A DNA stretch of 61,248 bases, counting the filler. It is 5 parts of 5 records of this genome, joined end to end, with 100 filler letters (N's around TTAATTAATTAA, not from the genome) between each part and the next. Parts side by side here need not be neighbours in the genome. Positions count along the whole stretch, not along the records: positions 1 to 25,872 come from SRR31156797_14609; 4 more parts are not named here. One strand, 5' to 3'. The notes below the pieces were generated by a model. The model was not told where the DNA came from. It made no database searches and saw nothing but the letters and a program-made list of their open reading frames with translations. This document shows, in pieces, positions 582 to 54,547 of this stretch (positions are counted from its first letter, which is position 1; every line of letters starts with the position of its first letter). The position numbers and the translations under genes were made by a program.

Positions 582-1433
582 GTGAAGTACAAGGAACGCT
601 ATTTCATAGGGGACATGAGCAAGATCTGTAACATCTCCAAAAAAGCACTTCGTTATTATGACCAGATCAATCTTATCCCCTCTCAGCGACACGATTACAA
701 CAACTATAGGTATTACACCCGGGAGTCCCTGCTATCAGTCCCGGTTATCAAATACTACAAACAGATGGGTTTCACCCTTGAAGAGATGAAAGAGTTCATC
801 GAGGGTAGCGCGCAACACATATTCAAATCCATCCAGCATTCGTTCCGGGCAAAGATCAGGGAGCTTGAGGACGAGCAGGAAAAAATTCGCCGCAGACACG
901 TATCGGTCAAAGACTGGTACGAACTGGTCCGCGAAGCGGAAATGGTCATTGACAACAATATTAACGTAGTCTCAATTAAATACATTGAGAGCGATGACCT
1001 GCTCTTTCATAACCAGAGATTTGAAAACGACCTGCAATGGTCAATCATCAACCTTGAATTCACCCAGCACGTAGAAGATGTAAATAACGCGATCACCGGA
1101 CCGGTTATCATCAACTACTCTTCCCGCAAGGACCGTGTCGAAGGGGTGGATCAGGACGTCACGATACTGCAGAAAACAGTAATCCCCTGCAGCGAAGAAA
1201 ATATATATGAATTTGGAGGAGACATGATGCTCTCCTGCTATCATATAGGTGCCCACGAAGACATCCACAAAACATACATGAAGATGGAACGCTGGGCAGC
1301 CAACAACGGGTACATACTGGGTAAAGAATCGTTTGAACGCTATGTCACCGATTACTGGACCACCAGTAACAGTGATAAATTCGTAACCGAAATACTGATT
1401 AAATGCTCGCGGCACGGCGATCAGAATGATTAG
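582..1433 (+). CDS. MerR-family regulator with C-terminal GyrI-like effector domain
   Basis: IGDMSKICNISKKALRYYD HTH; C-terminal HIGAHEDIHKTY...ERYVTDYW. Confidence 0.9.
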   Translation: MKYKERYFIGDMSKICNISKKALRYYDQINLIPSQRHDYNNYRYYTRESLLSVPVIKYYKQMGFTLEEMKEFIEGSAQHIFKSIQHSFRAKIRELEDEQEKIRRRHVSVKDWYELVREAEMVIDNNINVVSIKYIESDDLLFHNQRFENDLQWSIINLEFTQHVEDVNNAITGPVIINYSSRKDRVEGVDQDVTILQKTVIPCSEENIYEFGGDMMLSCYHIGAHEDIHKTYMKMERWAANNGYILGKESFERYVTDYWTTSNSDKFVTEILIKCSRHGDQND

Positions 1434-1461
1434 TTCCGCAACTCAATACGCTTTTAATATC

Positions 1462-1493
1462 AGCCCGCTTCCTGCTCGAAGCGGGCTTTTTTT
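1462..1493 (+). terminator. Rho-independent terminator
   Basis: AGCCCGCTTC-ctgctc-GAAGCGGGCT followed by a T run. Confidence 0.85.
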
Positions 1494-1766
1494 GTCCTGC
1501 TCAAAGCAGTACTTGCCAAACAAGAAGAGAAGCAATAAATTTGCATCTTATCAGATTGAGACCTTCACCACAGAAAAATTGACTATGCTTTTACTATCTC
1601 ACCTTATCGTTATTCCAACACATGCGGCAATATTAGTCCCCCGCCGTATCAAGACCGCAGTCTGACTAATTTATTTAAGCCGATTCCCTAGGATTATTGC
1701 GTCCTTTTATCAGAAACAGAGCATCACATGGTCTAGCGATAGACTATTCACTATTTGGAGACACCA

Positions 1767-2381
1767 ATGGATATAAATCCCTTTGAATCCCCATTTGAGG
1801 GATATGAAATTAGACAACACCTGAAGAACAAAAACATTACAGCTGGACGCCACAGCTACTACTCCGGATACTATCACGGTCACCACTTTGAAGAGAACGT
1901 CCGTTATCTGCACCCGGAACTGAATGATGTAGACAAGCTCATTATCGGTAAATTCTGCTCCATAGGTTCTGGGGCAACCTTCATCATGGCAGGAAACCAA
2001 GGCCATCGGCACGATTGGGCGAGCACCTATCCATTCCATTATATGGCCGAATTCAACCATGCAAAAGATGGCTTTCTCCGTAAGGGTAACACTGAAATCG
2101 GCAACGACGTATGGATTGGAACCGAAGCCATGATTATGCCGGGAGTAACTATCGGTCACGGAGCCATTATTGCTGCTCGTGCAGTTGTAACTAAAGACGT
2201 CAATCCTTATGAAATCGTAGGAGGAAACTCCGCTAAAGCTCTTCGCAAACGTTTTTCAGAAGATGAAATACGCATGCTTTTAAAACTGGCATGGTGGGAT
2301 TGGACAGATGAAAAAATCAAGCGCAACATAACTATGCTCACTGACGGCAATATAAGCCGACTGTATACTGAACACATTTAA
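1767..2381 (+). CDS. catB: CatB/Vat-type hexapeptide-repeat O-acetyltransferase (type B chloramphenicol acetyltransferase-like)
   Basis: [39 protein letters not shown]...[22 protein letters not shown] before ATG 1767. Confidence 0.85.
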
Positions 2382-2395
2382 AAACTAGGAAAACC

Positions 2396-3151
2396 ATGAA
2401 CAGCGTTGCAGAAGTAAAGTATACAAACTACCGCAGTTCCGTAGCAGAAGCACTGGATAAAATCGGAGCGGCCGAAGCCATAGCAGCTGAAGACAAGATC
2501 CTGCTCAAGCCTAATCTGGTCAACAGCTCGCCTCCGCCGGTAACCACCGAACCTGAATTTTGCCGTGCAGTAATTGAATATGCACAGATAGCCAATCCGA
2601 ACGCTGAAATCGTCATTGGCGAAGGGTGCGGGGATTTGAATTATGAAACAGATGAAATATTCAAAATACTCGGCTACGAACGTTTAGCTGAAGAATACAA
2701 TGTGAAGCTGCTGGACCTTAACCATGCCCAGCTTTGCGAAAAGAAAATGGACGGAGCAAAGGTATTCCCGACCATTTACCTGCCGGAGATAGCCTTCACT
2801 CATAAAATCATTTCCCTGCCCAATCTTAAAGCCCACTCGCTGGCCGGAATAACCGGGGCCATTAAAAACATGATGGGCTTTGCTCCCCCGGCCCATTACA
2901 ACGCCGGCAGCTGGAAAAAATCCTTTTTCCATCAGCAAATGCAGCAGTCTATAAAAGAGCTGAACAGGTTTATCCCACCATGGATCTCGGTGATGGACGC
3001 AAGTATAGGCTTGGCCGACTACCATCTCGGCGGTGCTCTTTGCGACCCGACCCCGGGACTGATCCTCGCCAGCTTTAATGCAGTTGACCTTGACCGCCGT
3101 GCCGCTGAAATACTCAACCTGAACTGGCGTGATATCGGGCATCTGAAATAG
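2396..3151 (+). CDS. DUF362 domain protein
   Basis: ILLKPNLV, TTEPEF, LKAHSLAGITGAIKNMMG motifs. Confidence 0.85.
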   Translation: MNSVAEVKYTNYRSSVAEALDKIGAAEAIAAEDKILLKPNLVNSSPPPVTTEPEFCRAVIEYAQIANPNAEIVIGEGCGDLNYETDEIFKILGYERLAEEYNVKLLDLNHAQLCEKKMDGAKVFPTIYLPEIAFTHKIISLPNLKAHSLAGITGAIKNMMGFAPPAHYNAGSWKKSFFHQQMQQSIKELNRFIPPWISVMDASIGLADYHLGGALCDPTPGLILASFNAVDLDRRAAEILNLNWRDIGHLK

Positions 3152-3228
3152 TTTTTTAAAGCTGAAAACGAATGAAAGAGTCCTTCGAAATTATTTTTTC
3201 GGGGACTTATTAAAATCAGCTCAAAAAT

Positions 3229-3690
3229 CTACGCTTCAAATTCCTGCTCCTGATCACGCAACTTCTGACATTCCGGGCAAAGACCAAAAAGAAGCATACG
3301 ATGATGGGTTAAAACATATCCATTTTCTCTGGCCAGAACCTCCTGCCTGCGCTCAATCCCATCATCAACCACTTCCACCTTCTTTTGGCACCTTGTGCAA
3401 ACAAGATGGTCATGGTGCTCATGTCCATAGGAATGCTCATACAGGGCAACTCCGCACCCGAAGTCCAGACCTTCAGCAAGCCCCGAATCCACAAGTAGTT
3501 TCAAGGTTCGATACACTGTAGCCTGTCCTACTTCCGGAACTCTTTTTTGCACCAAGAATAAAAGATCCTCGGCCGAAAAATGGCCTTCGGTTTCCAAAAA
3601 AGTCTCTACAATTACCTTACGCTGGGGAGTCATGCTCAATCCATTCTGCGCCAGATAATCGACAAATATTTTTGCTGCTTCACTTGTCAT
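3229..3690 (-). CDS. fur: Fur-family transcriptional repressor
   Basis: MTPQRKVI, HFSAEDL, ATVYRTLKLL, HHDHLVCTRC, CPEC; start uncertain (3690 or 3714). Confidence 0.9.
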   Translation of the reverse strand: MTSEAAKIFVDYLAQNGLSMTPQRKVIVETFLETEGHFSAEDLLFLVQKRVPEVGQATVYRTLKLLVDSGLAEGLDFGCGVALYEHSYGHEHHDHLVCTRCQKKVEVVDDGIERRQEVLARENGYVLTHHRMLLFGLCPECQKLRDQEQEFEA

Positions 3691-3693
3691 ATC

Positions 3694-3725
3694 GAAAATG
3701 AAATCCATTTTCATAACAATGTCAA
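3694..3725 (-). promoter_or_regulatory. 19-bp Fur-box-like palindrome plus TTGACA -35 upstream of fur
   Basis: GAAAATG-AAATC-CATTTTC at 3694-3712; minus-strand TTGACA at 3720-3725. Confidence 0.6.
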
Positions 3726-3810
3726 GCAATATTCAAATCCAAAAATACATACATGCTCGTTTTTAATATAGAAAATTTTCAGCTCAAAAATTACTTATTA
3801 ATAAACAAAA

Positions 3811-3830
3811 GCTATTCTCAAAATGAGAAT
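3811..3830. promoter_or_regulatory. Single copy of the activator-binding palindrome (probable autoregulatory site)
   Basis: GCTATTCTCAAAATGAGAA, identical to the left arm of the 5679-5720 repeat. Confidence 0.7.
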
Positions 3831-3863: not shown

Positions 3864-5615
3864 ATGCTGCTTAAGATTCAAGAACAGATCCAGTATTACG
3901 CGGAAACAATTTCAGCTATAACCGGGCTTGCGGTAGAGGTAGTGGATACGGAACTTATCCGTATTGCCGGAACCGGAGATTACTCCAAGAATATCGGCAA
4001 AAGCATTAAGAGCGCAGGTAATCTGCTGAAAACCACCCTGAAAGGCAGCACTCCGCTGTTCATTGAGAATCCCCGGCAAAACAAGATCTGCAAAGGCTGC
4101 CAGACCAAAGCCAACTGCCGGGAACTCTGCTCGGTCTGTGCGCCTATTTCAGATGGTGTCACTACTTACGGTGCTATGGAAATGATCTGCTTTTCCGCAG
4201 AAGCCCGCGAACAAATGCTTGAGCGGCGCGAAATATATATGAATTTCCTCTCCCTACTTTCCAGCAGTATTGCGGTGCGGGTACGTGAACGGCAGGAATT
4301 GCAAGACATAACCGACTTGCTGAACATCATGTCCCAAGTGGTAAACACCAACGAAAAAGGAATTCTCATCTACGATGCCAAAGGAAAGGTGGCTTACAAG
4401 AACGATCAGGCTGAGGAAATTCTGAGCAAAACAATCCCTTCTCAATTTGAGAATTTCTCCGTCACTCCCACCGGATTCACCCTTTCCGATCTGAACGAAT
4501 ACACAGTAGAACAGGAAGGTCGCCAGCAGATGATCGTTGGTAAACAGGCTGACATCGAATCCACAAACAGCCGTTTTTCTTCAGTTTTAGTATTCGACAC
4601 CATCCGTTCAGTTGTATCAAAATCCCTACAGGCAGCGACTGTCACCTTTGATAGCAGCCTTGATCATATCAAGGGGCAATCTCCGCACATTTTACAATTA
4701 AAAGAACAGATTACCGCAACCGGAGACACCAACTCATCGGTGTTGATCAGCGGCGAAAGCGGCACTGGTAAAGAACTTGTGGCCCGCGCCATCCACTCCA
4801 TCGGGGACAGGTCTGAAGAACCGTTTGTAGCTATCAACTGCGGAGCCATCCCTGACACCCTTCTTGAAAGTGAATTATTTGGATATGTTGGAGGAGCATT
4901 CACCGGAGCCTTGCGCCAAGGTCAAATCGGTAAATTCGAACTCGCTGATGGCGGGGTACTCTTTCTAGATGAGATATCCTGCATGCCTCTGTATTTACAG
5001 GTAAAACTACTGCGAGTTCTCCAAGAAAGAAAAATCACCCGCTTAGGCGGAAACCGCCCCATAGCCGTTGATATCCGCGTTATTGCCGCAAGCAATGACA
5101 ACCTCCATGAACTTATGGCCCAAAACATGTTCAGGGACGACCTCTACTATCGATTGAATGTCATTCCTATCCAAACCACTCCCCTGCGCGAACGGCTGGA
5201 TGATCTGGATCTGCTCATCCACCATTTTGTCGATAAGTACTGTGATTTATTCAGTAAAAACAAAATAAAATTGCAATCTTCAATCGTCCAGCGCATGCGT
5301 AAATATAACTGGCCGGGTAACATTCGCGAGCTTGAAAATGCTATTGAATATCTGGTGAATATGGCGACCCCGGAAGGGATCATCAATGAAGCCGGACTGC
5401 ACAGCGGCTTCTTGCAATGTAAAGATCATTTCCAGCAGGAGCAGGTTCAGATTTCACAAGGACCGGAATGTCCGATCATGTCCCTTAAGGAGCTAGAACA
5501 ACAAGCTATTTTGCGAGCTATTGAATATTACGGAGACACCACATCCGGCAAAAAACAAGCCGCCAAATCCCTTGGTATCGGACTGGCGACACTTTACCGC
5601 AAACTAGGCGACTGA
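3864..5615 (+). CDS. Sigma54-dependent activator (YgeV/RocR-like; N-terminal sensory region, AAA+, Fis HTH)
   Basis: GESGTGKE, GAFTGA, LFLDEI, WPGNIRELEN, LGIGLATLYRKL; GAGGAG RBS before ATG 3864. Confidence 0.92.
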   Translation: MLLKIQEQIQYYAETISAITGLAVEVVDTELIRIAGTGDYSKNIGKSIKSAGNLLKTTLKGSTPLFIENPRQNKICKGCQTKANCRELCSVCAPISDGVTTYGAMEMICFSAEAREQMLERREIYMNFLSLLSSSIAVRVRERQELQDITDLLNIMSQVVNTNEKGILIYDAKGKVAYKNDQAEEILSKTIPSQFENFSVTPTGFTLSDLNEYTVEQEGRQQMIVGKQADIESTNSRFSSVLVFDTIRSVVSKSLQAATVTFDSSLDHIKGQSPHILQLKEQITATGDTNSSVLISGESGTGKELVARAIHSIGDRSEEPFVAINCGAIPDTLLESELFGYVGGAFTGALRQGQIGKFELADGGVLFLDEISCMPLYLQVKLLRVLQERKITRLGGNRPIAVDIRVIAASNDNLHELMAQNMFRDDLYYRLNVIPIQTTPLRERLDDLDLLIHHFVDKYCDLFSKNKIKLQSSIVQRMRKYNWPGNIRELENAIEYLVNMATPEGIINEAGLHSGFLQCKDHFQQEQVQISQGPECPIMSLKELEQQAILRAIEYYGDTTSGKKQAAKSLGIGLATLYRKLGD

Positions 5616-5678
5616 CGCTCGTAAACATATTTACCTGATTCACCTGCTTTCACTCCTCTTCTTCCCGCTCGCCCTCAG

Positions 5679-5720
5679 CGCTATTCTCAAAATGAGAACT
5701 TTCTCATTTTGAGAATAGCG
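5679..5720. promoter_or_regulatory. Perfect 42-bp inverted repeat holding two TTCTCA-N3-TGAGAA sites; probable enhancer (UAS)
   Basis: CGCTATTCTCAAAATGAGAA-CT-TTCTCATTTTGAGAATAGCG, about 75 bp upstream of a sigma54 promoter. Confidence 0.75.
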
Positions 5721-5792
5721 TTTCAAACGCAACTTAGCCACTTAACTTCTCTATCATCCTGATTTTAAAAGCTTTATCATCGTGATAAAATT

Positions 5793-5809
5793 TTGGCACG
5801 CTCTCTGCT
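5793..5809 (+). promoter_or_regulatory. Sigma54 -24/-12 promoter
   Basis: TTGGCACGCTCTCTGCT (GG-N10-GC). Confidence 0.85.
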
Positions 5810-5863
5810 TTAGGGGAATCCAATCTGCAAGATTAAAATTTGAGGAGAAGAGGAGAATACACC

Positions 5864-7075
5864 TTGTCTAAAGTTAAGATTCAATACAACGGGAGCTTCA
5901 AGGCCCCGACAACCGGAGCAGACGTCTCCATGCTCAGCAGGGATGTTGCTGAAAAAGTGCGGAACTTCCATTCCACATTTGATGCATACAAACCTACACC
6001 GCTGGCAAAGCTCGACAACCTCGCCGACCACCTTGGACTCGGCGAAGTGCTGGTCAAAGACGAATCCTACCGCTTCGGCCTGAATGCCTTCAAAGTCCTC
6101 GGTGGTTCCTACGCTGTAGGTGAATACCTTGCCTGCAAACTAGGTAAAGATATCACCGAAGTCAGCTGTGACTACCTGAAGTCTCAGGAAGTTCGTGACG
6201 CAGTAGGCGACATCACCTTTGCCTCCACCACAGACGGTAACCATGGCCGCGGCCTGGCCTGGGCTGCCCAGCAGTTCAATCAGAAAGCGATCATTTACAT
6301 GCCCAAAGGGTCCGACCCGGTGCGCAGTGAGAATATCAAAGCCCACGGCGCAGAGTGCACCATCTCTGATCTCAACTATGATGATTGTGTACGCATGGCT
6401 TGGGACACCGCGCAGGAGAATGGATGGGTCACCGTACAGGACACCGCTTGGGATGGATATACTGAAATCCCCAACCTGATCATGCAGGGATATACCACCC
6501 TCGCCCTTGAAGCTCTTGAGCAGATGCAGGCTGAAGGTGTTGAGCGTCCCACCCACGTGATCCTTCAGGCCGGGGTCGGATGCTTTGCCGGAGCCATGCT
6601 CGGCTTCTTCATGTCCGCTTTCGGAGAGGATGCCCCTACTTTTATCCTTGTTGAACCTGAAGCAGCCAACTGTTTCTACGTTTCCGCCTGTGCCAACGAC
6701 GGCAAACCCCACACAGTGGACGGGGACCTGGCAACCCTGATGGCTGGACTTGCATGCGGCGAGCCCAACCTGACCAGCTGGGAAATGCTTCGCGATTATC
6801 CTCTGGCTTACGCTTCCTGCTCTGACGACATTGCCGCCAAAGGCATGCGCATTCTTGGCGCCCCCATCAAAGGAGACCAGCAGGTTGTTTCCGGTGAATC
6901 CGGCGCAGCAACCACCGGTTTCCTGCACTGGGTAATGCAGGATGAAGAAGGACGCGAAGCAAGGGAAAAACTTGGACTTAACCAAAGTTCGAAAGTTCTG
7001 TGCATCAGCACTGAAGGGGACACCTCCCCCCAGACCTACCGTGATGTGGTCTGGTTCGGACGGGAAAAATTATAG
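5864..7075 (+). CDS. dpaL: Diaminopropionate ammonia-lyase (PLP-dependent)
   Basis: KDESYRFGLNAFKVLGGSYA (PLP Lys), TDGNHGRG, QDTAWDGY, MAGLACGEP, STEGDT; AGGAG RBS and TTG start. Confidence 0.92.
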   Translation: MSKVKIQYNGSFKAPTTGADVSMLSRDVAEKVRNFHSTFDAYKPTPLAKLDNLADHLGLGEVLVKDESYRFGLNAFKVLGGSYAVGEYLACKLGKDITEVSCDYLKSQEVRDAVGDITFASTTDGNHGRGLAWAAQQFNQKAIIYMPKGSDPVRSENIKAHGAECTISDLNYDDCVRMAWDTAQENGWVTVQDTAWDGYTEIPNLIMQGYTTLALEALEQMQAEGVERPTHVILQAGVGCFAGAMLGFFMSAFGEDAPTFILVEPEAANCFYVSACANDGKPHTVDGDLATLMAGLACGEPNLTSWEMLRDYPLAYASCSDDIAAKGMRILGAPIKGDQQVVSGESGAATTGFLHWVMQDEEGREAREKLGLNQSSKVLCISTEGDTSPQTYRDVVWFGREKL

Positions 7076-7099
7076 TTCAGAACAACTTTTAAGGAGTAT

Positions 7100-8266
7100 A
7101 TGATGGAAATTCTCGATTTTGGTTTTACTACTGCTGAATTTGAAACAAGAACAGCACGCATGCAGAAACTCATGCGCGAAAAAGAACTCGATGCTGTTTT
7201 CCTGACCACCGAACCGAACATCCGCTACTATACCGGATATTACACCCAGTTCTGGGAAAGCCCGACTCGTCCTTGGTTTCTGGTCATTCCCCTTGAAGGT
7301 AAACCTATTGCCGTCATTCCCGGCATCGGCGCCAGCGGCATGCGGGCAACATGGATTGAAGACATCCGCACCTGGTCATCTCCCAACCCCGAAGATGACG
7401 GAATTACCCTTGTATCCGAAGTTCTCAATTCCCTGCCCAGCCGATTCGGCCGTATTGGTGCGACCCTCGGTTTGCAGTCCTACCTGCGCATGCCCACCGC
7501 CGATTACCTGACCATCACTGAAAAAGTCAGTAAGGAATTCGTCGATATAGCTGAAGATATGCACTACCTGCGCAGTGTTAAGTCCCCCGCGGAAGTTGAA
7601 AAAATCCGTCGCGCCTGCGCCATCACCAACCACGGCTTTGACATGATCCCCTCTCACGCCAGAGTAGGCCAGACCGAACGTGAAATCTGCACCCAGATGC
7701 GCATCAATATGCTTCAGGAAGGCGCTGAATTCGTTAAATACCTCATCTCCGGTTCCGGTCCCGACGGTTACGATTCCATCATCATGGGCCCCACTTCCCG
7801 CATAATTGAAGAAGGCGACGTGCTGATCATCGATGTAGGAGCAGTATACGACGGTTACTTCTCCGACTTTGACCGCAACTTTGCATTCGGCCGTTGCAGC
7901 GATGAAACCAAGCGCGCTTACGACTGCGTCTACGAAGCAACCGACGCAGGTTTCGCAGCAGCACGCCCCGGCGCAACCACCACTGATGTCTATAACGCCA
8001 TGTGGAAAATCATGGAAGCGGGAGGAGCACTGGGCAACGAAGTAGGCCGCCTCGGACACGGTCTGGGAACCCAGCTCACCGAATGGCCGTCCAACACCGC
8101 CACCGACAACACCGTTCTCGAACCGGGTATGGTTATCACCCTTGAACCCGGCATGACCTATGCCAAGGGCAAGGACATGGTTCACGAAGAAAATATCGTG
8201 ATCACCGAAGACGGCGCAGAATGGCTGACCCGCCGCGCCAGCGAACACATTATCGTCATTGATTAG
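7100..8266 (+). CDS. M24-family (creatinase-N + pita-bread) metallohydrolase
   Basis: Metal ligands present: DVGAVYDGYFSD, GHGLG, LEPG, HEEN. Confidence 0.88.
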   Translation: MMEILDFGFTTAEFETRTARMQKLMREKELDAVFLTTEPNIRYYTGYYTQFWESPTRPWFLVIPLEGKPIAVIPGIGASGMRATWIEDIRTWSSPNPEDDGITLVSEVLNSLPSRFGRIGATLGLQSYLRMPTADYLTITEKVSKEFVDIAEDMHYLRSVKSPAEVEKIRRACAITNHGFDMIPSHARVGQTEREICTQMRINMLQEGAEFVKYLISGSGPDGYDSIIMGPTSRIIEEGDVLIIDVGAVYDGYFSDFDRNFAFGRCSDETKRAYDCVYEATDAGFAAARPGATTTDVYNAMWKIMEAGGALGNEVGRLGHGLGTQLTEWPSNTATDNTVLEPGMVITLEPGMTYAKGKDMVHEENIVITEDGAEWLTRRASEHIIVID

Positions 8267-8289
8267 ATCAGAATAAGAGGGAGATTATT

Positions 8290-9852
8290 ATGTCAAACGG
8301 TAACGCAGCTGTCGCAGCAAAGCCCATGGCCGGAACTGAGACTGCAGAACAGGGGACAACACTTAAACAGGGCAAAATGCTGTTCACCAGCACCATGACC
8401 TTTATTGTCATGGTAGTCCTTGCAGGACTACTCTTCCCGGACAAATTATACGATGTAGGTATCGGAACAATGAACTACCTGACCGAAACCTTCGGTTGGA
8501 TCTACATGGCGGGTTCATTCCTCTATGTACTGGTTATGTTCTACTTTGCCTTCAGCAAATACGGCAACATCCGCTTTGGTGACGATGATTCCAAACCAGA
8601 ATTCAGCACCTTCTCATGGATGGGAATGCTCTTCTCCGCCGGTATGGGTACCGTAATGCTCTACTGGGGGGTTGCAGAACCTGTCTATCATTACATCAAT
8701 CCGCTGGTGACTACCGGTATTGCTCCCCAGACTCCGGAAGCAGCCGAATTCGCCATGAAACAGAGCTTCATCCATCAGGGTATTCAGGCATGGTCCGCCT
8801 TCTCTGTTGTCGGCCTGATCCTCGGCTACCTGATGTACCGTAAAAAAGAGAACGGCCTGATCTCCAACATCCTGCTGCCTTGGGGCCGCGACAAAGCCAA
8901 CGGCAACCTTGGTAAAATTGTCAACCTGATCTGTGTATTCGGTGCCATCGCCGGTATCTCCACCTCTCTGGGCCAGACCGGACTTTCCCTGAGTGTAAGC
9001 TTCTCTTACCTGCTGGGAACCCCGGACTCCACCATGACCAAACTGCTCGTGGTCGGAACCATCACCGGTATTACCGTGCTCTGCACCACCACCGGTCTTG
9101 AGAAAGGTATCAAAGTCCTTTCCGACTACAACGCATACCTGCTCATGGGCCTTATTCTGCTGGTAGGTCTCGTCGGACCGACCACCACAATGCTCAACGT
9201 ATACTTCGATTCCCTTGGAAACTACATGAACGACTTCTTCCGCGACGGCCTCATGCTGCCTACTTTCGCACCAGAAGAAGAAACTTCATGGGTCACCGGC
9301 TGGCCGATCTACTACTACGCATGGGCTATCGCATGGGCACCCTTTGTCGGTCCCTTTATTGCCCGCGTATCCAAAGGCCGCACTGTACGTGAATTCATCC
9401 TCGGTTCCATGATCCTGCCCTGCCTCGGAATCTTCCTCTGGGTAGCATTCTTCGGCACCATCGGTATTCAGGCTCCGGTTGAAGCACTCAAGGCTGCAGC
9501 AGCTTCCTCCAAGGCAGCAACGTTCATCGTCCTTGAAGGCTTCCCCTTGGGTTCCCTCATCTCATGGGGTGTAGTTCTCGCGCTGTTCACCTGCTTTATC
9601 ACTTCCCTGAACAGCTCCACCTTCACCTTAAGCTCCATGAGTCAGGACGGCGCAGCCAACCCGAGCAACAGAATGAAAACCATCTGGACCATTGCTCAGG
9701 CTTCCATGGCACTGACCCTCATGCTCGGTAGTAAGACCGGTATTGAACTCCTGCAGAGTATCAGCCTGATCTTCGCCCTGCCCCTCATGTTCGTGCTCTT
9801 CCTGTGCATGATCAGTACGGTCAAGATGTTCCGCGAGGAATTCCAGAACTAG
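8290..9852 (+). CDS. BCCT-family transporter
   Basis: PEFSTFSWMGMLFSAGMG, WAPFVGPFIARVSKGRTVREF, about 12 hydrophobic segments. Confidence 0.92.
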   Translation: MSNGNAAVAAKPMAGTETAEQGTTLKQGKMLFTSTMTFIVMVVLAGLLFPDKLYDVGIGTMNYLTETFGWIYMAGSFLYVLVMFYFAFSKYGNIRFGDDDSKPEFSTFSWMGMLFSAGMGTVMLYWGVAEPVYHYINPLVTTGIAPQTPEAAEFAMKQSFIHQGIQAWSAFSVVGLILGYLMYRKKENGLISNILLPWGRDKANGNLGKIVNLICVFGAIAGISTSLGQTGLSLSVSFSYLLGTPDSTMTKLLVVGTITGITVLCTTTGLEKGIKVLSDYNAYLLMGLILLVGLVGPTTTMLNVYFDSLGNYMNDFFRDGLMLPTFAPEEETSWVTGWPIYYYAWAIAWAPFVGPFIARVSKGRTVREFILGSMILPCLGIFLWVAFFGTIGIQAPVEALKAAAASSKAATFIVLEGFPLGSLISWGVVLALFTCFITSLNSSTFTLSSMSQDGAANPSNRMKTIWTIAQASMALTLMLGSKTGIELLQSISLIFALPLMFVLFLCMISTVKMFREEFQN

Positions 9853-9961
9853 CAACGTAGGACCTCCACTCCTAGGACATTACCTACAGAGACCCGTTGG
9901 CGCGGACAGCACCACATCCCCCGCGCCAACGGGCAAAATTTCAAAGCAAGAAGAAAGACAT

Positions 9962-11161
9962 ATGTTTGATAAAATTGTTGCACGCACCGGACATTACGAA
10001 CAGGAAATATACGATTTCGCCAGCGAACTGATCCGCATTGAAAGCCTCTCCGGTCAGGAAGGCGGGGTAGCAAAAGCTGTTTCCGCAAAAATGGAACAAC
10101 TCGGATTTGATAAGGTCGAAACAGACGAAATGGGCAATGTCTGCGGTTCAGTGGGGTACGGCCCCGCCCTTGTCTGTGTTGACGGACACATGGATGTTGT
10201 CGGTACCGGCGAAGAAAGCCTCTGGTCCCGTCCCTCCCTTTCCGGAGATCAGGATGATGACAAGATTTACGGACGCGGCGCAACAGACATGAAATCCGCC
10301 ATCGCTTCCATGGTTTACGCAGGCAGAGTCCTCAAGGATCTTGAACTGACCGACGGCCTTACTTACATGGTCTGCGCCAGCGTGCAGGAAGAGCCATGCG
10401 AAGGGCTGGCTTGGGAATATATGATTGAAGAACGCGGCATGCGCCCTGATTTCGTCATCCTTGCCGAACCCAGCGATGACAAGATTTCACTGGCCCAGAA
10501 AGGGCGTATGGAACTGAAAGTTTCTGTTTCCGGCAAAACCGCCCACGCTTCCACCCCGCATATGGGCGACAACGCCATCTACAAAATGGCCCGCATCATT
10601 GCCGATCTGGAATCACTGAATTCAAACATGGAAATTGAAGACAGTGAGCTTGGAAAAGGCTGCCTTGTTGTATCCGAAGTAAATTCCCATGCCCCTTCCA
10701 GATGCTCAGTTGCAGACTACTGTGAAATATCCATCGACAGACGACTCACTTGGGGAGAATCCGCAGAGTATGCCCTAGAACAGATCAAAAATTTGCCCAG
10801 CGTTGCCGATTCAGGGGCCCAAGTTGAGTGCTACCTTTTTGAAGAGCCTTCCTACACCGGAAAAACCTGTTCCAAAGAATGCATCTTCCCGGCTTGGAAA
10901 CTTGAAAAAGAGCATGTTGTGACCAATGCAACCAAAGAAGCATTCAAGGGTCTGTTCAGCAAAGAAGCAACCCTGACCACCTGGCCCTTTTCCACCAACG
11001 GCGTAGCCATCATGGGCAAAAATGATATTCCGGTTATCGGTTACGGTCCCGGCACCCTTGATGCCTGCCATGTTCCCGATGAGTACGTAAGCAAAGCACA
11101 GGTTCTTGATGCGGCTATGATGTACGCAGCAATTCCTGTAATATATACCAACAACAAATAG
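9962..11161 (+). CDS. ygeY: YgeY-like M20/ArgE-family hydrolase
   Basis: DGHMDVVG, GRGATDMK, VQEEPCEG, DRRLTWGE, WPFSTNGVAIMG, HVPDE. Confidence 0.82.
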   Translation: MFDKIVARTGHYEQEIYDFASELIRIESLSGQEGGVAKAVSAKMEQLGFDKVETDEMGNVCGSVGYGPALVCVDGHMDVVGTGEESLWSRPSLSGDQDDDKIYGRGATDMKSAIASMVYAGRVLKDLELTDGLTYMVCASVQEEPCEGLAWEYMIEERGMRPDFVILAEPSDDKISLAQKGRMELKVSVSGKTAHASTPHMGDNAIYKMARIIADLESLNSNMEIEDSELGKGCLVVSEVNSHAPSRCSVADYCEISIDRRLTWGESAEYALEQIKNLPSVADSGAQVECYLFEEPSYTGKTCSKECIFPAWKLEKEHVVTNATKEAFKGLFSKEATLTTWPFSTNGVAIMGKNDIPVIGYGPGTLDACHVPDEYVSKAQVLDAAMMYAAIPVIYTNNK

Positions 11162-11180
11162 TCCTAAGGAGATTAATACA

Positions 11181-11561
11181 ATGAAAACACAGATCAATAC
11201 CACCAATGCTCCCGGAGCAGTAGGCCCTTACTCTCAGGCAATCAAAGCCGGCAACACCCTTTATGTTTCCGGTCAGCTGCCCATTAACCCCGAAACCGGC
11301 AAAATGTGCGAAGGTTCCATTGAAGAGTGTACTCGTCAGGCTCTTGAGAACCTCAAAGCAATCGTAACCGAAGCAGGCGGTTCTCTGGATAACGTTGTAA
11401 AAACAACTGTATTCATGGCCGACCTCGGTGACTTTGTTGCAGCAAACGGCGTTTATGCTGAATACTTTGCTAAGCCTTTCCCCGCACGTAGCGCATTTCA
11501 GGTTGCCGCTCTGCCCCTTGGCGGCCGTATTGAAATCGAAGCAATAGTAGTTCTGGATTAA
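11181..11561 (+). CDS. ridA: RidA-family enamine/imine deaminase
   Basis: APGAVGPYSQAI, SGQLP, FPARSAFQVAALP, IEIEA. Confidence 0.93.
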   Translation: MKTQINTTNAPGAVGPYSQAIKAGNTLYVSGQLPINPETGKMCEGSIEECTRQALENLKAIVTEAGGSLDNVVKTTVFMADLGDFVAANGVYAEYFAKPFPARSAFQVAALPLGGRIEIEAIVVLD

Positions 11562-11582: not shown

Positions 11583-11619
11583 AAAGCCCCGCAATGCGTT
11601 GTTGCATTGCGGGGCTTTT
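11583..11619. terminator. Bidirectional terminator between convergent genes
   Basis: AAAGCCCCGCAATGC...GCATTGCGGGGCTTT. Confidence 0.85.
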
Positions 11620-11631: not shown

Positions 11632-13302
11632 CTATCCCCCGGCGGACTTCAATCCCATCTTACGCATCTTGCTCCTGAGCGTACTTGGGTTGAGCTCAAG
11701 CAGTTCCGCTGCACCGCCGGGACCGTTAATTCTTCCCCCTGCCTTTGCAAGGGCAGCAAGGATGGCCTCTTTTATTGTTTGTTCAAGAGGTTTAACCTCA
11801 GTCTGGTCAGACTGATCCACTTGGGGAAGCTGAATAGGCCCGGAACCGAGATTCAACTTTGCAAGATGCTTTTCAAGCATGATCTCTACCCGGGCATCGA
11901 TGGTCTTCTCAAAATAGCTCTGGCTTTCTTCAGGTGAAATATACCATCCCTCATCTTGTGGGAGCAGCTTATCCAGCAGTAAAGGACCGTGCGGATAGAG
12001 GGTCAGACCGCGCTTGACCAGGTTTTCAAGCTCGCGGACATTACCGGGCCATGAATATTGCAACAAACGGTCAACTGTCTGCTCAGGCAACTGCGGAAGA
12101 CTTTTTATACCCAACTCATCACAGCCGCGCTTCATAAATAAATAGATCAATTCCGGGATATCCTGCGTACGTTCGCGCAAAGGAGGAACTTGGACGGGAA
12201 AAACATAAAGACGGTAATAAAGGTCCTCACGGAAGGTGCCTTCCTGCAGCATGAGTTCAAGGTTACGGTTGGTGGCTGCAATAACCCGCACATCCACCTC
12301 AATTGACTTCGTGCTACCGATCCGTTCCACCACATTGTTCTGCAAAACACGCAGCAAACGGACCTGTGCCTGCAAGGGTAATTCGCCAATTTCATCAAGG
12401 AACAGAGTTCCCCCGTTGGCCTGTTCAAAGCGGCCCGGACGGGAGGTAGTTGCCCCGGTAAAGGCCCCCTTTTCATAGCCGAAGAGTTCACTATCGACCA
12501 ATGAATCAGGGATAGCCCCGCAGTTTACCTTCACAAAAGGCTTGTCCTTGCGTGGAGAAATAGCATGGATGGCATCGGCAATAAGTTCTTTACCTACCCC
12601 GGTCTCGCCCAGAATCAGAGCCGGAACCTCCCTGTTCTCAAGCTGGTGGACCACTTCCATAGTTGATTTCAAGCCACCCTGATCCCCCACAATCCGCCGT
12701 TCACGCAAAGTCTCCAGATCCTTTTCCAACCCGTCACGCTCTACGCGCAGCCTTTCCTGAAACTCCATGGTCCGCTGATATTGCAGCAGATTGGACATGG
12801 TCAGTGCAAATGGAGTGACCAGCAAAGCAAATTTACGCTCATGCTCCTGGGTAAAACAATTCGGATGCGTACCCATAAGGCAAAGATGTCCCAGAACTTC
12901 CTTTTCCGAACGCAAAACGCAAACCATATAAGCCCGTTCCTTCAGCGGGACCAGCTCTGACAGACTTTCACTATGCAGAGCTGAAACCGGAGAATCCATG
13001 TTTCGCGGTACCTTGATGACTCCGCTGACCCCCTGATTATGAAGAAAAAGGGAATTGGCCGCTTCCTCGGACAGAGGGGCCACGATTTCCACAAAATCAA
13101 ACCGCCCTTCCTGCACCAGAAACAGAAGCTTTAAGGCTTTCAAATCCGGGGAATACTGATGCAGGGAAATGGCATCAATGGGAAAATGTTCGGCAAGAAA
13201 CTCAAAGGTCTCAATGAGCGATTTCTGCATGTCCAGACTTCCGGTCAGCCGGGCCATAGCTTCGCTTAAAAATTTAAGATTACTCTCTCGGGAATGAGGC
13301 AT
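11632..13302 (-). CDS. Sigma54-dependent activator with N-terminal GAF-like domain (FhlA-like)
   Basis: GETGVGKE, GAFTGA, WPGNVRELEN, GAAELLELNPSTLRSKM; AAGGAG RBS favours ATG 13302. Confidence 0.9.
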   Translation of the reverse strand: MPHSRESNLKFLSEAMARLTGSLDMQKSLIETFEFLAEHFPIDAISLHQYSPDLKALKLLFLVQEGRFDFVEIVAPLSEEAANSLFLHNQGVSGVIKVPRNMDSPVSALHSESLSELVPLKERAYMVCVLRSEKEVLGHLCLMGTHPNCFTQEHERKFALLVTPFALTMSNLLQYQRTMEFQERLRVERDGLEKDLETLRERRIVGDQGGLKSTMEVVHQLENREVPALILGETGVGKELIADAIHAISPRKDKPFVKVNCGAIPDSLVDSELFGYEKGAFTGATTSRPGRFEQANGGTLFLDEIGELPLQAQVRLLRVLQNNVVERIGSTKSIEVDVRVIAATNRNLELMLQEGTFREDLYYRLYVFPVQVPPLRERTQDIPELIYLFMKRGCDELGIKSLPQLPEQTVDRLLQYSWPGNVRELENLVKRGLTLYPHGPLLLDKLLPQDEGWYISPEESQSYFEKTIDARVEIMLEKHLAKLNLGSGPIQLPQVDQSDQTEVKPLEQTIKEAILAALAKAGGRINGPGGAAELLELNPSTLRSKMRKMGLKSAGG

Positions 13303-13455
13303 AGTCAACTCCTTGTAAACTTAAACCTGCCACAGACTATTTAATAAAACAATAGATCTTTAAACTTAACAACTATCGTTTTATTTAGCAGCCAGAAAAG
13401 CCCTTAAAACGACCTCTCACAAATACAACACGCTGATTTTAAAGAACTTAGCACA

Positions 13456-13472
13456 TTGGCACATTTCTTGGT
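13456..13472 (+). promoter_or_regulatory. Probable sigma54 promoter of the rdh operon (variant -12)
   Basis: TTGGCACATTTCTTGG: consensus -24 element, -12 GG instead of GC. Confidence 0.6.
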
Positions 13473-13496: not shown

Positions 13497-14399
13497 ATGA
13501 ACATGTCAATGCAGCAAATCAATGAAGAACGGCTCAGGAAGCGTATTTGCGAATACAAGGATGAACGCGAATACCGTTCCCTGACAGAGTACCTTATCGG
13601 GGAACTCGCCTCCGGGCATGTTCCCATGCAGCTTCAGGCCAAGGCTTACAACGAACTTGGACTGGCCCACCTGCAGCTGGATGAGCCGCTTGAAGCGGAG
13701 AAATCTTTTTTATCGGCACTTGAGCGTGATCCACAAGCGCTTAACCCAAAATTCAATCTGGCTAACCTTGCCATGTACGCCCAGAGATATGAACAGGCCG
13801 AGGAACTATTTCATGAAATTCTTGAAATGGAACCCAGCCATATCGGGGCGAGATTTCATGCCGGGCTCTGCCTAGCCATGAGCGATCAGTCGGACCAAGC
13901 CCTACCCTATTTTGAATCCAGTGCCGCGGCCGCACCGCAGGCCATGGGCCCAAATTTCTGGGCAGCTGAAACCCTTGTAGCCAAAAAACGTTTCAAGGAA
14001 GCCCTGCCCTATTTCCGCAAAGCAACTGAAATCACCCCCGACCACCGTGAATCACAACGCGGAGTTGCAATCTGCCTGCTTGAAACCGGACAGAACGATG
14101 AATGCGTTGAGCAATGTGACACGCTCATCCTCTCCGGCCAAGGAGCGGAATACCTTGCATGGCAGATAAAGGGCGATGCCCTCATCGAAATGGGTGAAAT
14201 CGAAGCCGCTGCCCTCAGTCATCTGGAGCTGGCAGACATGGATTTCGATGCCCGTGATTTCCTGATCATGCGGGCCAAGGAACTCCGTAAGGAGTACCCG
14301 CACTATGTATCCCGCTACGCAGCGGTGATCATCGACGTTATCCCCGAACTTGAGCCTGCCTTTAACGGAATCTGCAATGATTCCATGGCGGAGCAGTAA
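13497..14399 (+). CDS. Tetratricopeptide-repeat protein
   Basis: Repeated AYNELGLAH..., KFNLANLA..., RFHAGLCLA... TPR-like helices. Confidence 0.85.
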   Translation: MNMSMQQINEERLRKRICEYKDEREYRSLTEYLIGELASGHVPMQLQAKAYNELGLAHLQLDEPLEAEKSFLSALERDPQALNPKFNLANLAMYAQRYEQAEELFHEILEMEPSHIGARFHAGLCLAMSDQSDQALPYFESSAAAAPQAMGPNFWAAETLVAKKRFKEALPYFRKATEITPDHRESQRGVAICLLETGQNDECVEQCDTLILSGQGAEYLAWQIKGDALIEMGEIEAAALSHLELADMDFDARDFLIMRAKELRKEYPHYVSRYAAVIIDVIPELEPAFNGICNDSMAEQ

Positions 14400-14419
14400 A
14401 CATATTCCCGGAGGAACTC

Positions 14420-16087
14420 ATGTCTGAAGAACAAAATGCGTTGGATATAATCAACGATCCCAAGAACCGTATGTCTTCCCCGGACAGTTCTGCCACTGAG
14501 CAGCCTGAACCGGAAAACATGGATAAAGAGCAAAAGCCTGCAAAGAAAGGTTTCAGCCGCCGTAATTTCCTGAAATTCGGAGGGGTAGCAGCCGCTGCAG
14601 CCACTGTGGCCGGAGCCGGAGGAGCCGGGTTTGCCATTGGCCGTTCCGATCAGGCTTACACCGGATACGGCCAGACCTATCAGGGCGGGGACCAATTCTT
14701 TAACCGTGAGCCGTTCCGCTGCGATGTCCCGGCCATGATGACCCCGGTGGGGGAAGTCGAACGCCCCGACTGGACAGATTACCTTTTCCTGCGCCTTGCC
14801 GCGCTGGTAAAGATCATCAAATCCGGCGAGTGGAACCCGGAAATGGGAGTGGACAAACTTCCCGGTCCCGTAGGCGACCACTACCGAGCCCGTCCCGGTG
14901 AACTTGAAATCATGCTCAATTCCCTGCAACGCAACATCAAGCGCAGTGAGGCATGGAAGAACGGGAAAGACAAGAAATACGCCCTCGCAGGAGCATACAA
15001 CATGGCCCTGCGCAAGGGCGGTATGGAATTCTCCGACCACACCAACCGTCTCCCCGCCGACCCGCAGGATGAATACAATAAAACCGGAAAACCCGTACCT
15101 CCTGAAGACTGGGATTTCCGGGGTATCTGGCGCAAAGAGCCCATGGAATTCAAATCCCCGGCCCATGCATCAAAGCTAATTAAGCGCATGGCCCACCAGT
15201 TCGGCATGTCCTTGGTGGGTATCACCAAGTTCGATCCCCGTTTCATGTTCAAGAACGTCATGCGCGGTATGCCTGACAAGGGCCAGAAATGGGGAGACAA
15301 AGTTCCCGAGCACTGGAAATCCATCATCGTCTTCGGCGTACCCATGAACTGGGATGGGACATATTCCGCCATCGGCTACTCTACTTCCTTTGATGCCTAT
15401 TTCCGCTCCCGCTGTGCTGCCAGCCTCATGGAACAATTCATCAAGGAACTGGGCTATCCGGCCCGCGCCCAATTTCCGGGCCACAACTATGAAATCATGA
15501 TGAGCCCATATGTACAGCTTGCGGGACTCGGCCAGTACAGCCGTGCAGGAGTGGTCATGGTCCCCGAACTGGGCGCAAACTTCCGCCCCGCAGCAGTAGT
15601 TACCAATATCGAGTTTGAATACGACAAGCCCATCGACGTAAAAATGGCTGATTTCTGCCTGAAGTGTAAGATCTGCGCCGACAACTGCCCGTCAGGTGCC
15701 ATTCCGCATGACGACCGCCCCAAAACCGTTGTGCGCGGGTTCAAACGCTGGAAGCTGGACGAAGAGAAATGCTACTCGCAATGGGCCGGAGGCCCCACTC
15801 AGGACGGTCTCGGTTGCAGGGTCTGCATCGGTGTATGCCCCTATTCCCGCAAGAACACATGGATTCACACCATATCCCGAGAGATTGAGCCGCGCGACCC
15901 AACAGGCATGTTTGCCACCGGACTACTGGCCATGCAGAAGAACTTTTTCAAGTTCAACGAGGCCGAGGATTACCGTTCAGAGTGGGATGGCGGCAAGGAA
16001 GCAAACTACCACAATCCGCCGTGGTGGCTGCGTGCCGAGAACTTCCTCAATGTCGAAAAAGACTGGGAATACCACGGCATGGAGTAG
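14420..16087 (+). CDS. rdhA: Respiratory-type reductive dehalogenase catalytic subunit
   Basis: Tat motif SRRNFLK; AGLGQYSRAG...PELGANFRP; CLKCKICADNCP and C-x14-CRVCIGVCP Fe-S motifs. Confidence 0.92.
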   Translation: MSEEQNALDIINDPKNRMSSPDSSATEQPEPENMDKEQKPAKKGFSRRNFLKFGGVAAAAATVAGAGGAGFAIGRSDQAYTGYGQTYQGGDQFFNREPFRCDVPAMMTPVGEVERPDWTDYLFLRLAALVKIIKSGEWNPEMGVDKLPGPVGDHYRARPGELEIMLNSLQRNIKRSEAWKNGKDKKYALAGAYNMALRKGGMEFSDHTNRLPADPQDEYNKTGKPVPPEDWDFRGIWRKEPMEFKSPAHASKLIKRMAHQFGMSLVGITKFDPRFMFKNVMRGMPDKGQKWGDKVPEHWKSIIVFGVPMNWDGTYSAIGYSTSFDAYFRSRCAASLMEQFIKELGYPARAQFPGHNYEIMMSPYVQLAGLGQYSRAGVVMVPELGANFRPAAVVTNIEFEYDKPIDVKMADFCLKCKICADNCPSGAIPHDDRPKTVVRGFKRWKLDEEKCYSQWAGGPTQDGLGCRVCIGVCPYSRKNTWIHTISREIEPRDPTGMFATGLLAMQKNFFKFNEAEDYRSEWDGGKEANYHNPPWWLRAENFLNVEKDWEYHGME

Positions 16088-47765: not shown

Positions 47766-48332
47766 ATGAAGATGAAAAAGTTATTGATGACGGTACTTTC
47801 TGTCTTGTTGATCATTGCTCTTGTAGGTTGTGCTAGCAAGGAGATGATGAGTGATCCGATTGACGAACTGTATGATTATGCAAACAAGTTAAAGAAAAGC
47901 GGTGCATTTGCGGTCGTGGGTTATGGTGAAAGCTCACGCAAGGATCTTGCTATGGAAAAATCAATTGCTAATGCTCAGCGTATGATTGGTGAATCAATCA
48001 ACACTGAGGTGGAAGCTTTGAAGAAAAAATTCATTGAAGAAGTTGGTACTGACGATACGGAAGTAAATGAGTTTTTCTCAATTGCAACCGAAGTGTTGAC
48101 AAAAGCTGAATACAGTGGAGCGACTGTAGAAAAAAGATTTAATTATGAGAGAAAAGACGGGAAAGTTGAATATTATACCGTTATGGCCTTAAATCCCGAT
48201 ATCATTGTTCAAAGTGTTGATGATCAATTGAAGAATAGAAAAATGTATGAACGCTTTAGAGCAAGTGAAGCATTTAAAGAGCTTGAAGATAAGATCGAGA
48301 AATACGAAGAATCTCAAATGATCTCGGAATAA
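47766..48332 (+). CDS. Lipoprotein, LPP20-like
   Basis: Lipobox LVGC; AVVGYGES..DLAMEKS..NAQRMI pattern; AAGGAG RBS. Confidence 0.7.
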   Translation: MKMKKLLMTVLSVLLIIALVGCASKEMMSDPIDELYDYANKLKKSGAFAVVGYGESSRKDLAMEKSIANAQRMIGESINTEVEALKKKFIEEVGTDDTEVNEFFSIATEVLTKAEYSGATVEKRFNYERKDGKVEYYTVMALNPDIIVQSVDDQLKNRKMYERFRASEAFKELEDKIEKYEESQMISE

Positions 48333-48336
48333 ATAT

Positions 48337-48367
48337 AAGGGCACGAAAGTGCCCTTTGTTTTTTTTC
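48337..48367 (+). terminator. Intra-operon terminator or stabilising hairpin
   Basis: AAGGGCAC-GAAA-GTGCCCTT followed by a T run. Confidence 0.8.
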
Positions 48368-48375
48368 TTGTTCTC

Positions 48376-49885: not shown

Positions 49886-49904
49886 TTTAATAAAGGATTT
49901 GGGT

Positions 49905-51743: not shown

Positions 51744-51752
51744 AGAAATTAT

Positions 51753-53399: not shown

Positions 53400-53481
53400 G
53401 AAAATCAAATATGATTTTAAACTTGATAATGTATTTTAGGGAATAAATTATTATTGATTATATAACAAGGAAATTGAATAC

Positions 53482-53541
53482 ATGAAGAAAACGTTAATTT
53501 TACTTTTACTCATCTCATCACTTTTTGCTGATGAATTCATA
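53482..53541 (+). CDS. Start of another exported protein (truncated)
   Basis: AAGGA RBS; MKKTLILLLLISSLFADEFI. Confidence 0.6.
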
Positions 53542-54478: not shown

Positions 54479-54547
54479 ACTTAGCATTTGTTTGCATTTA
54501 ATTGCAATAGAATTTTTCCGCTCGCTTTTCTCCATGCAATATATTTC

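Follow-up and report, generated by a model that had tools for sequence, protein, structure and literature searches.

Six co-oriented genes on the + strand, at positions 3864-11561 of a 61,248-nucleotide stretch of DNA from a marine sulfate reducer (filler included; hereafter the window), were identified by open reading frame and profile searches. They are read, with moderate confidence, as a substrate-inducible operon that breaks down a small zwitterionic solute, rich in nitrogen and based on 2,3-diaminopropionate (DAP). A sigma-54 activator gene is followed by dpaL, an M24 metallohydrolase gene, a BCCT carrier gene, ygeY and ridA. No published description of the dpaL-M24-BCCT-ygeY-ridA combination was found in full-text literature searches; the original prediction, made from the letters of the window, likewise knew of none.

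The activator gene (3864..5615, +) encodes 583 amino acids with an unnamed N-terminal sensor region, an AAA+ core and a Fis-type helix-turn-helix (HTH), recognised in Pfam as Sigma54_activat (PF00158, 227.7 bits), AAA_lid_14 and HTH_8. The protein stayed below every NCBIfam equivalog cut-off, the top match being PrdR with 356 against 795, and its N-terminal ~260 residues matched no family above threshold, a SpoVT_C/GAF-like match of 22.3 bits being sub-threshold. No YgeV model was among the NCBIfam matches of the activator in this general scan, in which no E. coli sequence was compared. The start first given, 3864, was retained, the ATG there being preceded by GAGGAG 7 nt upstream; a longer open reading frame from 3753 was rejected in favour of this ATG with its ribosome binding site. 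The dpaL gene (5864..7075, +) encodes a YgeX-type diaminopropionate ammonia-lyase scoring 657.9 bits with TIGR03528 (cut-off 532) and 571.3 with NF006058 (cut-off 276), as well as 467 and 407 bits to the solved DpaL chains 5ygr and 4d9g. It carries FK..GG (LNAFKVLGG), which we take to hold the lysine for pyridoxal phosphate (PLP), and DGNHG, presumably a DpaL motif, and its TTG start at 5864 is conserved in an alignment of dpaL upstream regions from seven loci. The third gene (7100..8266, +) encodes an M24 pita-bread metallohydrolase of an unnamed clade (PF00557, 159 bits, and Creatinase_N), the proposed first catabolic step, and the fourth (8290..9852, +) a BCCT-family carrier and proposed importer, matching PF02028 with 512.9 bits over positions 2-485 of 485. 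A ygeY-type M20 amidohydrolase gene follows (9962..11161, +; TIGR03526 586.7 bits against 321.5, NF009555 518 against 321), the product of which is proposed to remove an N-carbamoyl or N-acyl group to give DAP, and then ridA (11181..11561, +), encoding an imine/enamine deaminase (TIGR00004 171.9 bits, cut-off 106.25). At the level of sequence, the family membership of DpaL, YgeY, RidA and the BCCT carrier is thus established. The gaps from dpaL to ridA are, in order, 24, 23, 109 and 19 nt. Behind ridA lies an intrinsic terminator hairpin (11584..11617, +) with a 15-bp perfect stem and a U-rich tail, common to the operon and the convergent gene at 11632-13308; its folding energy of -39.3 kcal/mol (z -7.73) was reached by 0 of 200 shuffles, and a simple terminator consensus scan did not list it.

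Relatives of the M24 gene were sought in one genome per species, which gave 189 matched stretches, 181 of them confirmed; the best 80 of the 181 loci were used, a selection biased toward close relatives. Among these, the seven closest loci (L001-L007), with M24 proteins 78-97% identical to that of the window, come from Maridesulfovibrio, Desulfogranum mediterraneum, Halodesulfovibrio, other Desulfovibrionaceae and one Desulfobulbaceae metagenome-assembled genome (MAG). Activator, dpaL, M24 and ygeY are all retained in L001-L006, activator copies 55-95% identical stand beside the operon in L001-L007, ridA is co-located in L001-L005, L007 and Vibrio cortegadensis, and BCCT is present in four of the seven (L001, L002, L003 and L006). 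In the Halodesulfovibrio locus, BCCT is replaced by a EutA-like racemase with a TRAP carrier. In the Desulfobulbaceae MAG (L007), dpaL is reduced to a fragment and the activator is truncated, ending at residue 526 (numbering of the 620-codon open reading frame) and abutting the last 80 dpaL codons (L007:6113-7808); as judged from this junction, a deletion or misassembly has taken out most of dpaL together with its promoter and the HTH of the activator.

All five families of the operon's enzymes and carrier recur on plasmid p1 of V. cortegadensis, where dpaL-ridA is divergent from M24-BCCT-M20. Identity to the window is 79% for BCCT, 69% for M24 and 50% for DpaL, and the M20 protein is of a different subfamily. 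Because BCCT and M24 are close in Vibrio and DpaL and M20 are not, the M24-BCCT pair is taken to travel together across phyla. On these comparisons the gene set is conserved across phyla, and the neighbourhood search for co-occurrence, which had been put forward as a check, returned it as a conserved unit. In the phylum of the sulfate reducers the M24 family was detected in 2 of 401 evenly sampled genomes, both of them known already. The GC content is 0.52-0.556 over dpaL-ygeY (window 5500-10500) compared with 0.43-0.48 in the flanks, and the operon proteins are 80-91% identical to those of D. mediterraneum. The elevated GC, this identity and the rarity in the phylum together suggest recent lateral transfer, and marine sulfate reducers probably acquired the operon laterally from one another. 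Three runs of one metatranscriptome study, holding a small share of the words, were also searched; two gave nothing, and one gave ~90% identical contigs, belonging to a relative, over dpaL, M24, the M24-BCCT junction and BCCT, contigs which show neither transcription nor a single transcript.

A sigma-54 -24/-12 promoter, TGGCAC-N5-CTGCT (TGGCACGCTCTCTGCT; 5794..5809, +), stands in front of dpaL. By itself the -24/-12 pattern is at chance level in the window, with 2 matches against 1.97 expected. In 7/7 aligned loci, whose neighbouring sequence has diverged, neither the GG and GC cores nor the T-rich context beside them varies. About 100 bp 5' of this element an upstream activating sequence (5684..5715) is formed by inverted 15-mers, TTCTCAAAATGAGAA and its complement, at 5684 and 5701, and it is also kept in 7/7 aligned loci. 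A single putative activator site, an exact copy of these half-sites (TTCTCAAAATGAGAA), lies at 3815..3829, 35 nt before the ATG at 3864, and probably serves autoregulation of the activator. A further near-palindromic copy with 1-2 mismatches on both strands lies within the activator gene (4439..4453), its role being uncertain. The motif TTCTCA-N3-TGAGAA occurs in the window 5 times with at most 2 mismatches, against 0.47 expected, and 0 of 100 shuffles reached 5. The layout of the sites is that expected of an enhancer-binding protein controlling the operon and itself. A gene for sigma-54, rpoN, was over cut-off in 3/3 relatives' genomes (here and below, the whole genomes behind L001, L002 and L004), so that the enhancer-binding protein, the -24/-12 element, the upstream sites and, in the relatives, rpoN of a sigma-54 operon were all found. 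The regulatory signals are thereby documented, and the unit first described, one activator and five co-oriented genes bounded by a sigma-54 promoter and a terminator, is borne out by the profile scores, the promoter conservation and the hairpin.

The 81 M24 sequences placed in a tree formed one clade (support 99), separated from paralogues by a long branch. At E <1e-30 at least 8000 database clusters were matched, from Desulfotalea, Desulfobacula, Shewanella, Enterovibrio, Psychrobacter, Pseudovibrio, Endozoicomonas and others, all under generic names ('Xaa-Pro peptidase family protein'), and the ESM Atlas held generic M24 clusters only. All five metal ligands D-D-H-E-E, which we take to be the ligand positions of M24B peptidases, are kept in the window's protein when it is aligned to the prolidase 5cdl, and in an alignment of seven family members. 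The best solved relatives are Xaa-Pro dipeptidases, with 125.9 bits to prolidases against 66 bits to EutD. The clade has TEWP where prolidase has HEGP, so that the His of the GHG..HE.P peptidase motif, presumably catalytic, is Thr in the 7 aligned members; the Trp of TEWP is common to the clade and EutD. The protein reaches no curated NCBIfam cut-off, being below those of the peptidase models (PepQ 151 against 630, PRK09795 113.5 against 393) and of the ectoine hydrolases (TIGR02993 75.5 against 613, DoeA_2 104.7 against 575). It is 23-25% identical to ectoine EutD and, unlike it, keeps the five ligands: at four of these positions the three true EutD compared carry E, L/Q, Y and M instead, as read off an alignment made in this analysis. 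Creatinase has the M24 fold with a metal-free active site, and this identity was rejected for the window's protein, which retains the ligands and scores just 72 bits to 1chm. From its residues and scores, the M24 protein is predicted to be a metal-dependent hydrolase that is not an ectoine hydrolase, a creatinase or a standard prolidase.

The genomic partners of M24 were counted in the best 80 of the 181 loci plus 19 from an even sample of one proteobacterial class, 99 in all, 73 of which have at least 4 kb on both sides (full flanks); partners were sought by tblastn with a custom query set, by which divergent RidA and M20 genes are undercounted. Of these 73 loci, 37 have DpaL within 6 kb of M24, 43 a EutA-like two-cysteine racemase and 33 an M20, and a DpaL or CysK-like lyase is near M24 in 44. 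The class sample showed the M24 family in 21 of 400 genomes (~5%), a tally that, like that for SbnA below, includes four unpublished genomes, which sit in these denominators only. DpaL and the EutA-like racemase were each found in 11 of the 19 loci fetched from it, and its 13 full-flank loci have DpaL in 9, the EutA-like racemase in 8 and M20 in 3. Three streamlined genomes carry just DpaL-M24-EutA amid housekeeping genes. DpaL-linked members are scattered over the whole clade tree, including Actinobacteria; in Arthrobacter, RidA-M20-DpaL is divergent from M24, a EutA-like gene and an alanine symporter, the Rid-family reading frame of this cluster being an unrelated one. DGNHG is found in 33 and AGNHG in 10 of the 44 adjacent lyases, and the AGNHG lyases look, by this motif, more dehydratase-like.

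A CysK/CBS-like PLP enzyme of 486-565 amino acids (L004:14713-16173, L007:10802-12262, L026:9312-11009) stands beside the module in some loci, many of them lacking DpaL; it has remote cysteine synthase or CBS relatives only and may catalyse beta-elimination in place of DpaL, or beta-replacement. On plasmid pSR3 of Aminobacter sp. SR38 (L120) the genes of the module follow in the order amino-acid ABC carrier, racemase, M24, ArgE/DapE-type M20 and cystathionine beta-lyase. An ending in a C-S lyase is as expected for a cysteine-yielding analogue, and the CysK-like and cystathionine beta-lyase variants hint that sister members handle sulfur analogues. Directly 5' of M24 in two unrelated loci (L030:1423-7935 and L095:3289-5727) lie sarcosine-oxidase-alpha-like and dimethylglycine-dehydrogenase-like genes (DAO and GCV_T), which hints that some substrates are N-methylated.

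YgeY and YgeX end the reductive (2,8-dioxopurine) urate pathway in E. coli and clostridia. The original prediction was that this end module of the purine pathway had been re-wired, and the relatives' genomes speak for it. In 3/3 of them neither SsnA (best 224 bits against 455.5) nor YgeW (best 46 bits against 500) was over cut-off, and each has exactly one YgeY over cut-off, the operon's own. The genomic link of YgeY-type hydrolases to a selenium-dependent molybdenum hydroxylase and to urate genes is not seen here: XdhD, YgfK, SsnA, HyuA and YgeW were missing from the operon in profile scans, HyuA, XdhD and YgfK not being searched for in the relatives' genomes. Because SsnA and YgeW are lacking in the three relatives, the YgeX/YgeY pair appears to be detached from urate degradation. 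The likeness to the terminal urate module is nevertheless close, the window's YgeY and DpaL being over the curated cut-offs of its families and the published chemistry leading by way of DAP from its ureido derivative to pyruvate and ammonia (PMC12507026; 10.1101/2025.04.24.650524); the difference is that an M24 hydrolase and a BCCT carrier sit between dpaL and ygeY here. According to these two reports, YgeY and YgeX convert albizziin (3-ureido-alanine) to pyruvate (PMC12507026), YgeY acts on the 2-ureido group of 3-amino-2-ureidopropanoate (10.1101/2025.04.24.650524), and two ureido groups are taken off stepwise by two enzymes (PMC12507026; 10.1101/2025.04.24.650524). Since the published activity of YgeY, as of the E. 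coli enzyme on mono-ureido-DAP, is hydrolysis of ureido-DAP, N-carbamoyl-DAP or a close acyl analogue is favoured as its substrate. Of the N-acyl- or N-carbamoyl-DAP intermediate first proposed, the carbamoyl form has therefore gained and the acetyl form is less favoured.

The M20 partner position is filled by four unrelated subfamilies: YgeY in the sulfate reducers, a TIGR01891 aminoacylase (DoeB2-like) in roseobacters, Vibrio and Photobacterium, ArgE/DapE in Arthrobacter and Aminobacter, and TIGR01879. The last is found on an Agrobacterium plasmid with the order DpaL-M24-amino-acid ABC carrier-amidase, the amidase belonging to this hydantoinase/carbamoylase family with 418 bits against 204; Rhizobium and Sinorhizobium plasmids have the same gene order with, by annotation only, a 'Zn-dependent hydrolase' in the same position. 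The repeated recruitment of M20 subfamilies suggests one simple deacylation, and because two of the four are carbamoyl-removing types, a ureido intermediate is favoured.

The BCCT family generally transports solutes that are cationic or zwitterionic, and diureido acids are not among them. The window's BCCT protein is below the glycine-betaine equivalog cut-off (NF047988, 457 against 650 bits), and it scores alike to the solved choline, trimethylamine and betaine carriers, so that no substrate is assignable by comparison. Its signature region YYYAWAIAW aligns with FFWAWWVAW of the choline carrier BetT, leaving the W-x-W-W tryptophan motif incomplete, and in an earlier helix it has Q where BetT has Y. 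The aromatic box for quaternary ammonium, known from BetP, thus seems partly replaced. M24 genes of the clade are linked to BCCT, TRAP or EhuABCD-type carriers, and it is these three families that take up ectoine; in Bosea, ehuBCDA stands directly before M24, with EhuB at 309.6 bits against 190.9.

Ectoine and 5-hydroxyectoine catabolism, as set out in two reports, employs EutD/DoeA, EutE/DoeB, EutABC and AsnC/EnuR regulators, with uptake by UehABC, EhuABCD or BCCT (PMC8739950; PMC13188858). The operon would resemble it in the import of a zwitterionic solute, an M24-fold opening step, a deacylation and the entry of a diamino acid into central metabolism. Loci of the wider module share with it EutA-like racemases (TIGR02990 179-206 bits, below the cut-off of 318), DoeB2-like M20 proteins, the commonest M20 partner (~313-320 bits, below 550), AsnC regulators, which are frequent at M24 loci, and TRAP, Ehu or BCCT carriers. 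It differs in that the end enzyme is DpaL, for a C3 diamino acid, rather than diaminobutyrate transaminase, and in that the deacylase is M20 and not of EutE type. In 3 of 5 other carrier genomes a true EutD is encoded at a separate place, and no EutD was over cut-off in 3/3 of the sulfate-reducer relatives' genomes. The ectoine analogy drawn in the original prediction gains independent support from the partners and carriers and fails for M24, which is not EutD/DoeA-like in mechanism. Hydantoin and 2-aminothiazoline-4-carboxylate systems combine a racemase, a ring-opening hydrolase and an M20 N-carbamoyl-amino-acid amidohydrolase to yield a free amino acid. The module is alike in its two-cysteine racemase, its proposed ring-opening hydrolase and the carbamoylase-type M20 (TIGR01879) of Agrobacterium, and in Aminobacter a C-S lyase closes the locus, which would suit a sulfur analogue; the module differs in the M24 fold, unlike the ring-opening hydrolases of those systems, and in a lyase that destroys the product. 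In enterobacteria, DpaL makes 2-aminoacrylate stress from DAP and RidA removes the 2-aminoacrylate. The two genes are likewise co-located here, in Vibrio and in Arthrobacter, with the difference that they stand here at the end of a larger import-and-hydrolysis operon.

What we infer from gene context is the order of the steps, the nature of the substrate and that M24 acts ahead of DAP formation. The activator would bind the TTCTCA-N3-TGAGAA sites ~100 bp 5' of the promoter, sense the solute or an intermediate and open the sigma-54 promoter. The solute would be imported by the BCCT carrier and opened or cleaved by the dinuclear-metal M24 enzyme to N-carbamoyl- or N-acyl-DAP, from which YgeY would strip the carbamoyl or acyl group. 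DpaL would convert the resulting DAP via 2-aminoacrylate to pyruvate and 2 NH3, and RidA would quench 2-aminoacrylate, a reactive enamine. The likeliest substrate class, proposed tentatively, is a five-membered ectoine analogue, 2-amino- or 2-methyl-imidazoline-4-carboxylate, the 2-amino form of which would give ureido-DAP and the 2-methyl form N-acetyl-DAP. A 2-substituted imidazoline-4-carboxylate fits the carriers (a carboxylate with a delocalised cation), the racemase (a chiral alpha carbon) and the hydrolase pair. A broader claim, which we consider possible but rather doubtful, is that the operon and the wider M24-DpaL-racemase module, which occurs in streamlined marine genomes too, degrade a widespread natural metabolite resembling a compatible solute, a five-membered DAP-based relative of ectoine that chemistry has yet to recognise. 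On that view the M24 enzymes would form a new class of metal-dependent hydrolases for cyclic amidines or guanidines. A search for a biosynthetic counterpart, SbnA (diaminopropionate synthase) beside an EctC-like gene, found SbnA over cut-off in 1 of 400 sampled genomes.

Several observations weigh against the proposed pathway and substrate. None of the proposed five-membered ectoine analogues is known to occur in nature, the 2-methyl compound (DHMICA) being described in the literature found solely as synthetic, and 2-methyl-imidazoline-4-carboxylate, named as a possible substrate in the original prediction, has accordingly lost ground. None of the partners counted was detected in 16 of the 73 full-flank loci, a CysK-like lyase is the partner in 8 of the 73 (9/99 of all), and the Aminobacter M24 pairs with a cystathionine beta-lyase (NF005456, 559 bits, over cut-off); given these other lyases, the clade may handle several related substrates. 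The scheme of two hydrolases, M24 and M20, applies to part of the loci and is not universal, M20 being absent near M24 in 14 of the 37 DpaL-linked full-flank loci. The step is therefore either encoded elsewhere or M24 releases DAP directly, in which case a single reaction may suffice and YgeY may have a different role. All database names of the clade are generic, so that its function is read from gene context, and the resemblance of M24 to prolidases, with the peptidase metal site kept, leaves a peptide-like substrate compatible with the sequence.

Generic peptide use, with M24 as a prolidase-type dipeptidase, M20 as a dipeptidase and DpaL and RidA handling serine- or DAP-type products, would account for this resemblance, for the five retained ligands and for the public annotation as Xaa-Pro peptidase. 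We nonetheless think it very unlikely in view of the PepQ score, far from its cut-off, the His to Thr change in the 7 aligned members (at a presumably catalytic position), the long, well-supported branch that separates the clade from its paralogues, and the linkage to DpaL, EutA-like racemase and solute carriers, the annotated loci holding no peptide carriers. Equally hard to credit is a variant route for ectoine or 5-hydroxyectoine itself with a DpaL-like lyase replacing EutB. EhuBCDA directly 5' of M24 in Bosea, the DoeB2-like and EutA-like partners and the more dehydratase-like AGNHG in 10 of 44 adjacent lyases agree with such a route, but the window's DpaL is a high-scoring equivalog close to solved DpaL, the operon has no diaminobutyrate transaminase or EutC, canonical EutD coexists in 3/5 carrier genomes and none was found in the sulfate reducers. 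Somewhat less remote, and still improbable, is that the operon scavenges linear DAP compounds bearing ureido or acyl groups (for example 2,3-diureidopropionate, albizziin or oxalyl-DAP) leaked by purine fermenters or plants, in which M24 would replace YgeW/UacY for one group and YgeY take the other. The urate-cluster type of YgeX and YgeY, the removal of two ureido groups by two enzymes in turn in the urate pathway, and the carbamoylase-type M20 partners on rhizobial plasmids speak for it; diureido acids are, however, not what BCCT carriers generally take, the EutA-like racemase and the Ehu and TRAP carriers of ectoine type are left unexplained, and many loci are without any M20. Catabolism of a zwitterionic DAP-based solute is thus the preferred reading of the operon.

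Other features of the window surround the operon. Upstream, four genes at 582-3729 encode a choline-utilisation activator (over the NF053782 cut-off with 505 bits), a CatB-like hexapeptide acetyltransferase (325 bits, below the cut-off of 350), a DUF362 protein and a Fur-family regulator, the last divergent from the operon's activator gene. Downstream, the gene at 11632-13308 (-), convergent with ridA, encodes a second sigma-54 activator, and a -24/-12-like site, TGGCACATTTCTTGGT, at 13457-13472 stands 5' of genes for a TPR protein and a TAT-signal protein (13497-16087, +); the latter resembles reductive dehalogenase, with TIGR02486 at 157 bits, just below the cut-off of 160. At 19106-23089 (-) a 1327-residue fusion of a BadF/BcrA-type activase ATPase and DUF2229 (CoA-enzyme activase) is encoded. 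The region 47766-60155 holds a run of proteins without Pfam match, followed by a papain-family protease domain, a 1200-residue KAP-family NTPase and an MCM OB-domain protein, and may be a mobile or defence island.

If the proposed role of the operon and the wider module is true, a very common gene set signals that bacteria degrade a small, nitrogen-rich molecule which current marine and soil metabolite lists lack. The set is found in sediments and marine plankton, in associates of sponges and squid, and on plasmids of Vibrio and rhizobia. As cultured carriers exist and the pathway ends in easily measured pyruvate, the question can be tested directly. Identifying the molecule would add a term to dissolved organic nitrogen cycling, assign a function to thousands of genes named only 'Xaa-Pro peptidase', explain the wide spread of diaminopropionate ammonia-lyase beyond purine fermenters, and show how a sulfate reducer draws pyruvate and ammonia from an osmolyte-like compound.

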